From positions 1 to 55,217 of the IMG/VR virus record IMGVR_UViG_3300012943_000008: a stretch of 55,217 bases of DNA. One strand, 5' to 3'. Source of the DNA: a virus. Taxonomy: Duplodnaviria > Caudoviricetes. The notes under the pieces were generated by a model, which saw nothing but the letters and a program-made list of their open reading frames with translations, ran no database searches and was not told the origin of the DNA. Both the position numbers and the translations under genes were made by a program. Shown piece by piece: positions 52,080-55,217 of the stretch (position 1 is the stretch's first letter; each line of letters starts with the position of its first letter).

Positions 52080-55000
52080 GCACGATCTTTGACCCGGCCC
52101 CGTCCTACCGTGTCGCCCAGCGCGCGGAAAATGCACGTCTCGCCCTCGATCTCCCACTGACGACGCTCAACACGCTGGGGCTCGGTATCCAGTCCGGATT
52201 TGTCGATAGCTTCGGCATCGGCACGGCGGTCAAGGATTTCTCGACGCCGCGCGGGGCGACGTCGCCGACGCTGCCGCCCGCCATCATGGGCAACCCGATC
52301 ACCGGCCCGCTGGTCACTGGCTATGAGGCCGCGCGGCGTCTCTTGGGTGCGCCGACGACGGGGCCGACGATCTCCGAAGAGGATTGGAAGAAGTCGGAAT
52401 TCTACCGCGACGGCGTGCCGTGGGATGCCGGCATGACGACGGATCGGGCGGCCGCGATTGCGACGCAATACGATATCCGCAAGGCCCGCGAATTCTTCGG
52501 GCAAAAGGACATGCTGCCGTCCCTGCTTGGGCAGTTCATCGGCGGCGCCGGCGATCCGATCAACTATGTGCCGATCTTCGGGCAGGCCGCTCGAGTCGCG
52601 GCAACGACGCGGTTCGGCGTGATCGCCGGGCACGGCCTGATCGGGGCGAGCGAAGCGGCGATCAACACGGCGGTCTTTGGCGCCCTCACCACGCCCTTCC
52701 GCGGCGCCCTGGGCGAAGACGTGAGCTTCGAAGCGGCGATCAACAATATCGCCTTCTCAGCGATCGCCGGCGCGGTCTTTGGCGGCGGATTCGCGGCGGT
52801 TGGGCAAGTGGCATCCCGGCGAGCTCAACGGGCCGAAGCCGCGGTGCAAGAATCCATCCGGTCGCTGCGCAACATCGAAGCCTCGCGCGACGTGCTCAAC
52901 GACGCGATTTCGTCGATCGTCGAAACCGGCGACGTGCGCCTCTTGCCGAAGTCGAAGGCTGTGCTCGAGCGGATCACGGCCGATGCTGTCGATCGACAGC
53001 AAGCGGCCCGGGCGCTGGATACCGAAACCCGGGGCGTTGCCGGCACAAAGGCGGGCGAGGTCGCGATCGCGCCGTCGGGCGCCCGGATCGCGGTCCGGCC
53101 GGAAGTGGTCGAAATGTCGAGCCTCCGCCCCGCGACCGGCGCGCTCCAGGTCCGCGATCGCTCGATGAACAATGCGGCGAACGTGACGCAAATCGAGGAT
53201 ATCGCGATCAACCTCGATCCCGCGCGCCTCATGCCCAACGTCGACGCCTCCCAGGGCGCGCCGATCGTCGGGCCGGATGGTGTCGTCGACTCGGGCAACG
53301 GCCGCACCGCCGCGATCTCGCGCGCGTATGAAGCCTATCCGGAGAAGGCCGCGGCATATCGGCAAGCCCTGATCGACGCCGGCTATCCCGACGCCGCGAA
53401 CATGCAACAGCCGGTGCTTATTCAGCGCCGCGTGACGGAACTCTCCCCCGAAGCTCGAGCGCAGTTCAACGCCGATGCGAACGCGTCGACGACGGCGCGC
53501 ATGTCCGCGGTCGAAACGGCCGCCCTCGATCGCGCGGCGCTCACGGATTCGGTTATGGACGCCTACGCCGATGCGCCGGTGACGGCGGCCTCCAACCGGG
53601 GCTTTGTCGCCCGCTTCCTCGGCAACCTGCCGGCCAATGAGCGGCTTGCCCTGGTCGACCGGGACGGCGGCCTCTCGGCCGACGGCGCCCGCCGGATTGA
53701 GAACGCAATGGTGGCGGCCGCCTATGGCGACGTCGACGCCACGGTGATCCGCAAGTTCGCCGAAGCGACGGACGATAACACCCGCTCGATCGTGGGCGCG
53801 CTGGCCGACGTCGCCGGCAAGTGGATCGGCATGCGGCGCGCGATCACCCGGGGCGAGATCGACGCCGATTTCGACATGACGCCCGAACTCACCGAAGCGC
53901 TGCGTAAGCTGAGCGGATGGCGCGAACAGGCGGCCCGGGAAGGCCGACCGGTGTCGATCGTCATCAAGGAAGGGCTGGGGCAGGGCGACATGCTCGCCGG
54001 CGACGTGTCGGCGCCAACGCAATTGTTCGTCCGGTCGTTCTATGCGAGCGGGGAATTCACCCAGGCCGCTTCTCGTGAAACAATCGCGGGCCGGCTCAGC
54101 GATCTGATCAACTCGTCGATCGAGCTCGGCCAGCCCGATATGTTGGGCGAAGCCTACGCGGCGACAAAGTTGGGAGTGCTCAAGCGTGTCTATTCCGATA
54201 TCGAAACCGACTTTCTCGAAGCTGTCAGCCTTCGCACGGGCACTGACGATCTCGGCGGCACGGGAAGGGGACTTGGACCTCGCTCGGGTCGCCAAGGCGG
54301 TGCGGACGGCGCTGGCGGATACCGGCCCGGCCGAACTACTCCCGCCAGCCCCGCGGAACGTCGAGCCGCCACCCGCAACCTAAAGGATAGCGCGCCCACC
54401 CGCTCGATCGATGAGCTCTATGCGGTGGCCGATGGGCATCAAGCCGCGCTCGACGAGCTCGGCAAGACGCTCGGCGATTGGGTCAATCCCGGCCTCAAGG
54501 ATCGCGCCTCGGCGGAAACGAAGATGGCGCGCAAGGGGTACGAGTCGACTCGCGAATTGACCGATGTCGTGCGCGGCGGCTTCAAGGTCAAAACCCCTGC
54601 CGACGCCGAAGATATCATCGAAGCGCTGGCCCGCCGGTGGCGTGTGGTCGATGAGGGCTGGAACATCACCCAGGCCGGCTATTTCGACCGCAAGGTGCTT
54701 GTGCAATTCGAAGACGGCACGATCGGCGAAGTGCAAATCTGGCATCCGGACATGCCGGCGGCGAAGAAGGCCGGCCATGCGCTCTATGAACAGATGCGCG
54801 ATCTCAAGCCGGACGATCCGCGGTTCATGGAACTGCTCGACGCGCAGAAGGCGCTTTACCTCGAGGCGGTCGCCAAGTCCTCGGACGACTGGCTCCCGGT
54901 GATCTCGAGGCTGGTCGACGAAATGCCGGGCGGCAAGCCGGCCTCGGGGAACGCCTCTTCGAACGCTGCCGGCGAAAGCTTGGTCCCGGAGTCGATGATC

Positions 55001-55217
55001 TCGGCCGCCGACGCCTCGCGCCAATCGCCGCCGGATGCGGGGATGAACCAAGCGGAACTGCCGCTGATCACGGCCGGCCGGCCTTCCCAATCGAAGAACG
55101 ATGTTTCCATGACGGGCAACCTACGCGCGCCCATCATCGACATGCAAGAGCCGCAACCGGAACCGCCGCCGGACGGGCTGCTCGAGGCCGCCGCCCGCGT
55201 GGGTAAATCCGAAGACG
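52076..55217 (+). CDS. Polyvalent internal virion protein (1113 aa across the join, ends at 323) with DdrB-like ParB and RelA/SpoT-like domains
   Basis: GTGA-coupled start and open frame to the window end. LQVRDRS..LDPARL..GAPIVGPDGVVDSGNGR; LKDRASAETK..LTDVVRG..GYFD..EVQI..HALYE. Confidence 0.85.
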   Translation, partial: MSTIFDPAPSYRVAQRAENARLALDLPLTTLNTLGLGIQSGFVDSFGIGTAVKDFSTPRGATSPTLPPAIMGNPITGPLVTGYEAARRLLGAPTTGPTISEEDWKKSEFYRDGVPWDAGMTTDRAAAIATQYDIRKAREFFGQKDMLPSLLGQFIGGAGDPINYVPIFGQAARVAATTRFGVIAGHGLIGASEAAINTAVFGALTTPFRGALGEDVSFEAAINNIAFSAIAGAVFGGGFAAVGQVASRRAQRAEAAVQESIRSLRNIEASRDVLNDAISSIVETGDVRLLPKSKAVLERITADAVDRQQAARALDTETRGVAGTKAGEVAIAPSGARIAVRPEVVEMSSLRPATGALQVRDRSMNNAANVTQIEDIAINLDPARLMPNVDASQGAPIVGPDGVVDSGNGRTAAISRAYEAYPEKAAAYRQALIDAGYPDAANMQQPVLIQRRVTELSPEARAQFNADANASTTARMSAVETAALDRAALTDSVMDAYADAPVTAASNRGFVARFLGNLPANERLALVDRDGGLSADGARRIENAMVAAAYGDVDATVIRKFAEATDDNTRSIVGALADVAGKWIGMRRAITRGEIDADFDMTPELTEALRKLSGWREQAAREGRPVSIVIKEGLGQGDMLAGDVSAPTQLFVRSFYASGEFTQAASRETIAGRLSDLINSSIELGQPDMLGEAYAATKLGVLKRVYSDIETDFLEAVSLRTGTDDLGGTGRGLGPRSGRQGGADGAGGYRPGRTTPASPAERRAATRNLKDSAPTRSIDELYAVADGHQAALDELGKTLGDWVNPGLKDRASAETKMARKGYESTRELTDVVRGGFKVKTPADAEDIIEALARRWRVVDEGWNITQAGYFDRKVLVQFEDGTIGEVQIWHPDMPAAKKAGHALYEQMRDLKPDDPRFMELLDAQKALYLEAVAKSSDDWLPVISRLVDEMPGGKPASGNASSNAAGESLVPESMISAADASRQSPPDAGMNQAELPLITAGRPSQSKNDVSMTGNLRAPIIDMQEPQPEPPPDGLLEAAARVGKSED
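54186..54383 (+). CDS. Nested +1-frame 65-aa ORF inside the polyvalent gene
   Basis: GGGAG 9 nt upstream of GTG; the host frame switches to A/T-ending codons here. Confidence 0.55.
   Translation: MSIPISKPTFSKLSAFARALTISAAREGDLDLARVAKAVRTALADTGPAELLPPAPRNVEPPPAT
54856..55110 (-). CDS. Nested antisense 84-aa ORF, candidate immunity or antitoxin protein
   Basis: METSFFDWEGRPAV..AWF..DWREAS..LSPAAFEEAFP has a globular composition while the sense frame is S/A/P-rich; promoter-like motif upstream. Confidence 0.65.
   Translation of the reverse strand: METSFFDWEGRPAVISGSSAWFIPASGGDWREASAAEIIDSGTKLSPAAFEEAFPEAGLPPGISSTSLEITGSQSSEDLATASR
55095..55217. repeat. Terminal direct repeat copy of 1-123
   Basis: Exact sequence identity. 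Confidence 0.95.
55118..55147 (-). promoter_or_regulatory. Antisense promoter TTGCAT-N18-TAGGTT, 7 nt before ATG 55110 (leaderless geometry)
   Basis: Hexamers and spacing read directly from the minus strand. Confidence 0.5.

Follow-up and report, generated by a model that had tools for sequence, protein, structure and literature searches.

Toxin-immunity pairs are already known, and so are RelA/SpoT-fold domains in phage polyvalent proteins. One of the closest described systems is the type VI pair Tas1 (Apk1)-Tis1 of Pseudomonas aeruginosa, in which Tis1 neutralises Tas1 by occluding its active site (PDB 6ox6; PMC10083569). Tas1-like enzymes co-occur with many export domains, and 2,959 Tas1 homologues have been listed (PMC12691689). 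In this study, we analysed the IMG/VR virus record IMGVR_UViG_3300012943_000008 (Caudoviricetes), a stretch of 55,217 bases that is referred to below as the window, and focused on a gene for a large polyvalent virion protein at its end (Table 1). This protein carries a Tas1/Apk1-like RelA/SpoT-fold domain (P0001). The linker behind the domain is overlain on the minus strand by an open reading frame (ORF) for a small protein (P0002). The domain is a new member of the Tas1-like kind, and the gene arrangement is a novel variation on the toxin-immunity theme. What did not turn up in the literature searched is an immunity-like gene lying wholly antisense within the toxin's own reading frame, as seen here at no fewer than 64 distinct loci with G+C contents from 36% to 72%. 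Taken as a whole, the reading that we hold to be probably correct is that a Tas1/Apk1-like toxin domain of a virion protein is accompanied by a real antisense immunity gene within its linker.

Tas1 is the nearest solved relative of the domain by profile and is among its two best fold matches. As in the Tas1-Tis1 pair, a small non-enzymatic partner is predicted to lie over the active-site face. However, the carrier here is a phage virion protein, whereas Tas1 is delivered by a PAAR protein and the type VI secretion system (PMC10083569). The Tis1 gene follows that of the toxin in an operon, while the partner gene here is antisense inside the toxin frame, and the small protein has no sequence or fold likeness to anything solved. 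MuF-Apk2 of a Bacteroides caccae prophage, which is encoded with BcTis1 and the hydrolase Aph1, likewise joins a virion-associated carrier to a Tas1-like synthetase and is never without a small immunity gene (PMC10083569), a linkage that is also seen here. In contrast to MuF-Apk2, the present carrier is a DdrB-ParB polyvalent protein with no MuF match, and its candidate immunity gene is nested and reversed. No hydrolase gene like Aph1 was noticed nearby, although none was searched for.

The carrier belongs to the same class as the phage polyvalent proteins of Iyer et al. 2017 (PMC5512222), which are large multidomain late-gene products with DdrB-ParB and RelA/SpoT-fold domains and have been proposed to be packaged and injected. 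That report places RelA/SpoT domains in Spirochaetes and epsilon-proteobacterial prophages, whereas the present family spans G+C contents of 36-72%. In its main text, supplements aside, the terms 'antisense' and 'immunity protein' do not occur. The toxic small alarmone synthetase (toxSAS) modules FaRel, PhRel and CapRel (PMC7229694, PMC11782079) also combine a small alarmone-synthetase toxin that halts growth with a dedicated small neutraliser. However, they are two- or three-gene operons or carry fused antitoxin domains, reside in cells and prophages, are not parts of virion proteins and have no antisense overlap. No nested antisense immunity gene turned up in full-text literature searches or in a polymorphic-toxin survey, supplements aside.

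Selection, linkage and copies of the small gene

The comparative set comprised 80 viral loci with the domain and three closer ones. In all 49 distinct tails that bear the motif of the window's linker, across the G+C range of 36-72%, the antisense frame has a stop-free run of about 65-82 codons with a conserved translation, and it ends opposite the last Tyr of the domain. The antisense consensus looks globular (M..F.DW[ED]xRPAV...A.A.L.PGG.W..V..[DE]V..SG..L....F...F), and the sense translation of the same stretch is of low complexity. Substitutions within the motif are dissimilar in the sense frame (S/L/D, K/T/Q), and their antisense counterparts are similar (D/N/S, F/V/C). Pro12, Ala13 and Trp30 are invariant in all 33 aligned small proteins. 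An invariant Trp needs NNC-CAN on the sense strand. CAN codons are preceded by C at 119 of 156 places in the overlap stretch versus 620 of 2119 outside it in these genes, and, at loci with a G+C fraction below 0.52, at 49 of 68 versus 222 of 979.

For a test of selection, sites were classed by their effect in both frames and differences were counted in independent close pairs; the counts are pairwise and not tree-based. The ratio of nonsynonymous to synonymous change (dN/dS) of the antisense frame was taken at sense-synonymous sites, and that of the sense frame at antisense-synonymous sites. In the overlap (10 pairs), the antisense dN/dS was 0.25 and the sense dN/dS 0.58. With transversions only, the antisense value was 0.20 (Fisher 1.2e-7 against doubly synonymous transversions). 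In the 140 domain codons just upstream (9 pairs), the antisense value was 0.74 (0.96 for transversions, not significant) and the sense value 0.24; in the C-terminal part (7 pairs), the values were 0.64 and 0.27. By these counts, purifying constraint shifts to the minus strand in the overlap only. Thus, purifying selection acts on the antisense frame and is relaxed on the sense linker, as the original prediction, made from the letters of the window, had expected of its homologues.

The first conserved aromatic residues of the small protein follow within a few codons of the start codon, which is ATG in 40 of the 48 genes listed and GTG or TTG in the other 8, at least one of which (locus L030) was misplaced by the script. 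Of 45 distinct starts, 36 have a GGAG, GAGG or AGGA core at a distance of 3-12 nt upstream, as against 167 of 2073 (8.1%) other minus-strand ATGs of the same loci (P 1.8e-31). On the comparative sequence evidence, the minus-strand ORF is very probably a genuine gene that is translated. The family provides built-in controls in its flanking regions, its stand-alone homologues and its homologues without the domain, and is among the clearer comparative cases of long antisense coding overlap in prokaryotic viruses, a class that is often doubted.

A profile of the small protein (A2), built from 33 antisense proteins, was run over six-frame translations and found matches in 75 of 90 sources. At 85 distinct loci with the toxin domain, the small gene is nested wholly inside the sense ORF at 64, co-directional at one and convergent at one; the remaining loci gave no match at E<=1e-3. 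Among these, one ends at a contig edge and four have weak matches (E 0.003-0.015) at the right place. When 80 loci were chosen by the ParB domain alone, the small gene was present in 9 of the 10 with the toxin domain and in none of the 70 without it; the tenth was cut by a contig end. The original prediction had proposed that the small gene would be absent from homologues lacking the domain, which is what these loci show.

The exceptional arrangements are informative. In L022, the toxin domain is terminal and an 88-aa homologue follows in the same direction, 180 nt past the toxin stop. TAGRWSQ-like text appears there only as the antisense of the stand-alone small gene. In L075, a 74-aa homologue is convergent, 2 nt beyond the stop of the toxin gene. 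The immunity genes of pore-forming colicins likewise lie after the toxin gene and opposite to it, with a promoter of their own; they are not read through and encode membrane proteins. They are thus convergent with the toxin gene, as in L075. In L008, L009, L027, L031 and L042, the domain and small gene stand in the middle of the protein and are followed by the ParB domain. The proposal that domain and antidote move as one cassette agrees with this distribution, in which the two stay together at C-terminal and at internal positions of the domain, and the small gene can also be a separate neighbour. In L013, L014, L016 and L017, a nested copy is accompanied by profile matches to two further minus-strand copies downstream. 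In L016, the sole one of these four whose ORFs were listed, they form a 185-aa gene of two tandem small-protein domains (3893-4450, minus strand), about 300 nt past the polyvalent stop. An open frame in L016 holds a possible third copy further upstream, and the putative antidote would be present at least three times in each of these four loci.

In L064, L069-L072, L076 and L082-L086, the toxin-domain match extends only to about residue 140 and there is no A2 match. The antisense frame of these loci is still long and starts MRLFRFD or LRFFRDADG, in some with a GAGGT-like site ahead (judged by eye, not quantified). They may contain a second, divergent family of nested antidotes.

Profile A2 was also searched against 5.8 billion predicted proteins. 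It matched 33 clusters, the named ones all being 'hypothetical protein' and three coming from alphaproteobacterial genomes (Blastochloris, Phycobacter and Aliiroseovarius). The domain has 714 called clusters, in a second database that is clustered differently. This difference suggests that gene callers usually drop the small gene, in line with the original view that standard callers would miss it, and it serves as a warning that linkers of large mobile-element proteins can conceal genes which callers reject.

The RelA/SpoT-fold domain and its predicted partner

P0001 contains the five motifs that had been read from the sequence as a RelA/SpoT-like set, all within residues 781-959 (at about nt 54497-54790): K37-x3-S41-x3-K45, DVVR at 59-62, GY at 97-98, EVQI at 114-117 and HALYE at 130-134. 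Residues G35, K37, K45, D59, R62, D88, Y98, D100, E114, Q116 and Y133 are invariant across the 25 sequences of alignment A1. The K-x3-S-x3-K, D-x-x-R, G-Y and E-x-Q motifs and the Y after H/G-x-x have catalytic roles in synthetases of this fold. A profile of the 25 members of A1 matched Tas1 (6ox6_A) in the PDB at E 8.9e-18, the motif residues being aligned to the equivalent Tas1 segments, and the exported synthetase SaSAS of Streptomyces albidoflavus (8vx3) at E 2.5e-7; a single-sequence search with P0001 reached Tas1 at E 0.15 only. The AlphaFold2 (AF2) model of P0001 has a predicted local distance difference test score (pLDDT) of 96.4. Foldseek against the PDB returned 40 matches at E<=0.001, and every one listed is a small alarmone synthetase (SAS), Rel, RelA, SpoT or Tas1. 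The best were 8vx3 and 6ox6 (query TM-scores, TMq, 0.71 and 0.65). The domain is a divergent Tas1/Apk1-like member of the RelA-SpoT fold, placed in that branch because profile, AF2 and Foldseek all point there, and its original assignment to the RelA/SpoT fold was correct. From its kinship to Tas1, and from that alone, we infer that the domain would be toxic and would produce (p)ppApp.

A HMMER search over 1.84 billion representative proteins found the 714 clusters with the domain mentioned above (E<=1e-3), nearly all of them long proteins in which its position varies. At least 80 IMG/VR loci carry the toxin domain, and a metagenome search gave three. A tblastn search against 50,697 GenBank phage records returned no match at E<=1e-5, and two scans of genome contigs found no relative. 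The toxin-domain family seems, on these searches, to be confined to uncultivated phages and prophages. A search with the N-terminal 780 aa of the polyvalent protein returned only one contig, which was already in the set.

The small protein of the window is acidic and rich in Trp and Phe, with 13 Asp or Glu against 4 Lys or Arg, 3 Trp and 5 Phe. The original description of the ORF proved exact in coordinates, length and composition. If translation began at a second in-frame ATG, at 55143, the product would have 95 aa. AF2, run with a 33-row alignment, modelled P0002 with a mean pLDDT of 79.5 and means of 86-92 for 10-residue blocks over residues 1-50. The fold covers about 55 residues and consists of five short strands and two helices, with elements up to residue 53; residues 56-84 are disordered. 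The disordered tail is encoded opposite the final helices of the toxin domain; therefore, the important part of each frame covers the tolerant part of the other.

When the toxin domain (A1) was co-folded with residues 1-60 of the small protein (A2), the interaction prediction score from aligned errors (ipSAE) was 0.85, 0.82 and 0.85; none of three controls scored above 0.00. The partner had a pLDDT of 92 and the runs shared at least 98% of contacts. Of 80 solved complexes, 58 reach the mark used for such scores, as do 2 of 110 mismatched pairs; for runs with custom alignments, these counts are a rough guide only. The model is unlikely to have reproduced a known structure, since no like complex has been solved. 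On the toxin side, the predicted contacts (48-53, 56, 92, 94-96, 133, 136-142, 146 and 150) adjoin K-x3-S-x3-K, GY and H-x-x-Y-E; on the side of the small protein, they include the conserved helix 33-44. Co-folding of the two proteins had been proposed with the original prediction, and the models support binding of the small protein to the toxin domain. That the small protein both binds and inhibits the adjacent domain is likely, and the family would be a candidate new family of small inhibitors of Tas1-like enzymes.

Proposed mechanism and alternative explanations

We propose that the small protein would cover that side of the toxin domain which bears the K-x3-S-x3-K, GY and H-x-x-Y-E motifs and act as a non-enzymatic immunity protein (antitoxin), as Tis1 does for Tas1. 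The toxin domain and the reversed immunity gene would form one cassette. If the protein continues past the domain, the immunity gene, read in reverse complement by the sense frame, would double as a tolerant linker; if the domain is terminal, the small gene would stand by itself next to the toxin gene. In the window's clade, a sigma-70-like promoter of the small gene's own, located within the host gene, may give rise to a leaderless mRNA; in most other clades, the small gene has a Shine-Dalgarno site. We infer that the big protein is ejected with the DNA, and likewise the time and place of immunity expression. Such an arrangement offers an answer to the question of how a phage with no annotated antidote can make a virion protein whose toxin domain is potent and consumes ATP. 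A further, tentative suggestion, which we regard as somewhat doubtful, is that the sequence of the immunity gene has been moulded until its reverse complement contained no stops and could be accepted as a linker, so that the pair can be inserted anywhere in polyvalent proteins, C-terminally or internally, without breaking them, and that the antidote keeps its own promoter working against late transcription. If this were true, the phage would inject a burst of (p)ppApp synthetase activity and then silence it from an early, host-recognised leaderless transcript. Lysogens would be immune to the same weapon from kin, and there would be a general route for shuffling weapon-antidote pairs unseen by annotation pipelines.

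The promoter-like site of the window (Table 1) has exactly the sequence and the distance from the ATG first reported for it. A TA-initial hexamer lies exactly 7 nt before the ATG in the window (TAGGTT) and in L087 (TATATC), L003 (TACATT), L007 (TACATT) and L012 (TATATC), and an identical TTGCAT lies 18 nt further upstream in the window, L087 and L003. The 'TA' arises from a sense CTA, ATA or GTA codon, and NTA makes up 2 of the 213 Leu, Val and Ile codons of the window's gene. A TTGCAT/TAGGTT promoter is plausible, the ground for it being this conservation of the hexamers in close relatives. We give about an even chance to the proposal that the small gene is transcribed from it as a leaderless mRNA in this phage. 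In L007, a sense insertion of about 145 aa (about 2744-3180, plus strand) directly follows the nested start codon; it displaces the -35-like region and retains TACATT-N7-ATG.

Several observations weigh against the reading of a toxin domain with a real antisense immunity gene. The two hexamers match at 3/6 and 3/6, and such pairs occur about 8 times per kb per strand; a stricter promoter scanner found no site in 52000-55217. No Shine-Dalgarno core precedes the ATG of the window's ORF or those of its clade. TTGCAT mirrors the conserved sense residues D-M-Q and includes the in-frame ATG at 55143, and its conservation may be due solely to D-M-Q. The 19 of 85 toxin-domain loci with no A2 match also count here, as does the pair of the window and L087 taken alone (74% nucleotide identity), which is saturated and displays no constraint (SN 0.37, SS 0.42, NS 0.39). 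On the side of the small protein, there is no Pfam family, and neither PHROG nor PDB sequence searches gave anything usable, profile A2 returning only a spurious repeat-protein match in the PDB at E<=10. Foldseek of its model against the PDB and BFVD had no match at E<=0.001 (best in the PDB 0.68). Tis1 was not recovered by the PDB profile search or by Foldseek; the small protein is, by these comparisons, a family distinct from Tis1. The presumed immunity role rests on the linkage and on one structure model. The domain itself has no match to Pfam RelA_SpoT, which we take to be PF04607, even at E<=10, because the family is too divergent for that model. Stops in the frame are not depleted in the window, as detailed below, and the sense linker is itself somewhat constrained, at the dN/dS of 0.58 given above.

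One alternative treats the antisense ORF as the by-product of a linker that is rich in G+C and in S/A/P, lacks Tyr and is therefore open on the other strand by default; what is conserved would then be the sense TAGRPSQ. The third codon positions of the antisense ORF coincide with those of the sense frame, so antisense stops can arise only opposite NNY-TAN or NNT-CAN, and the sense protein is Tyr-free between residues 937 and 1109, which leaves 169 open antisense codons. Another antisense frame of the same gene has longer open stretches of 540, 246 and 236 codons. Resampling of synonymous codons in the window's tail expects 1.36 stops where 2 are seen, which is no depletion. The sense tail is conserved (TAGRPSQ...), and A-G-R-P and G-R-P-A mirror each other automatically. 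However, a by-product would not explain why selection moves to the antisense frame in the overlap only, why C before CAN is retained even at 36% G+C, or why start codons and Shine-Dalgarno cores are conserved. The same protein is also encoded on its own, once on the strand of the toxin gene (L022), and AF2 gives it a confident fold. We consider this explanation very improbable. The original notion of an S/A/P-rich sense linker stands, with the amendment that its apparent motif TAGRPSQ is the mirror of W-E-G-R-P-A-V in the small protein. The open frame and the promoter-like match are each ordinary alone, and it is the comparative evidence that lifts the finding above chance.

Frame openness as evidence for the gene was set aside, being unremarkable in a 65% G+C genome. 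Over 66 whole tails, the resampling gave 156 stops against 201 expected, which was judged too weak; one clade stands out with none against about 3 expected. A null model of reshuffled synonymous codons for antisense identity (z 2.5-3.6 in the ORF versus 0.9-2.7 in the domain) was replaced by the site-class counts because it was distrusted for Ser/Leu/Arg-rich stretches.

A small gene that is real and binds the domain need not encode an antidote. It could encode a chaperone or adaptor that keeps the toxin domain stable or loads it into the virion, or the switch of a non-toxic signalling enzyme. The linkage and the co-fold would suit any obligate partner, and full-length Tas1-like effectors do need chaperones (PMC10083569). 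Against this, the predicted contact surface bears the conserved active-site motifs, as would be expected for an inhibitor, the small partners of Tas1 and Apk2 are inhibitors (PMC10083569), and the extra tandem copies outside the toxin gene favour immunity over loading. A non-antidote role is unlikely in our judgement. Somewhat less doubtful, yet still not what we expect, is that the small protein mainly guards lysogens or infected cells against toxin that superinfecting relatives inject (exclusion) rather than the producer, which is a sub-case of the toxin-immunity reading. The putative separate promoter opposing the late operon and the extra stand-alone copies are consistent with exclusion, as are the occurrence of several relatives on viral contigs of about 31-45 kb and of called homologues in three bacterial genomes. 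Speaking against it, a PHROGs scan of 20 ORFs of the window gave neither an integrase nor a repressor.

The polyvalent host gene and the rest of the window

The window is a complete viral record in which bases 1-123 recur directly at 55095-55217 as a terminal repeat. Because its last 123 bases equal the first 123, the polyvalent gene leaves the window at one end and finishes at 323, and the full-length protein (52049..55217 joined to 124..323) has 1122 aa. The start codon of the nested ORF and its promoter-like site fall within the repeated 123-bp part. A gene caller working on the linear record would cut the big polyvalent gene short at the junction. The first possible polyvalent start (TTG 52049) overlaps the end of the upstream gene for the 1004-aa internal-virion-like protein by 31 nt.

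Table 1. Features of the window that are discussed in the text, with their positions
Feature	Position	Strand	Remarks
Polyvalent virion protein gene, first 1056 codons	52049..55217	+	runs past the window end through the 123-bp repeat
Polyvalent gene, last 66 codons and stop (TAA 321-323)	124..323	+	conserved C-terminal tail, ending ...RVAAACVMG
DdrB-like ParB domain, aa 344-461	53078..53431	+	Pfam PF18763, E 1.3e-29, 103 bits (cut-off 27.6)
Tas1/Apk1-like RelA-SpoT-fold synthetase (toxSAS-like) domain, aa 781-959, P0001	54389..54925	+	profile, AF2, Foldseek
Nested antisense gene, 84 aa and stop, P0002, candidate immunity protein/antitoxin	54856..55110	-	ATG at 55110, stop 54856-54858
Conserved folded core of the small protein, residues 1-66	54913..55110	-	A2 profile E 2.3e-24; overlies the sense linker only
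Promoter-like TTGCAT-N18-TAGGTT, ending 7 nt before the ATG	55118..55147	-	TTGCAT 55147-55142, TAGGTT 55123-55118
Tail protein	45354-48131		PHROG-based neighbour
Internal virion protein with peptidase or endolysin-like part	49065-52079		1004 aa; PHROG matches at residues 362-480
Virion structural protein	418-3039		neighbour of the polyvalent gene
Tail fibre	3091-4068		neighbour of the polyvalent gene
Transglycosylase-bearing protein	4904-7687		neighbour of the polyvalent gene

The ParB domain is the sole Pfam match in the polyvalent protein, and the same scan gave no processing peptidase domain and no MuF match. In PHROGs, the protein matched an internal virion protein and large phage proteins of the unknown category. 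With 1122 aa, a DdrB-ParB domain together with the RelA/SpoT homologue (RSH) domain, and neighbouring genes for tail, internal-virion and structural proteins, it fits the polyvalent-protein class, and its original placement in the virion module is borne out. Sense-frame conservation is also seen over the last approximately 90 residues of the big protein at G+C contents of 36-72%, in the window and in tails from L003 to L087 (...EIP...G......L..C, with a near-terminal Cys). Pfam has no family for this region, which may have a role in incorporation into the virion. Elsewhere in the window, the minus strand carries genes for a RecT-like annealing protein and an exonuclease at 13799-16269.

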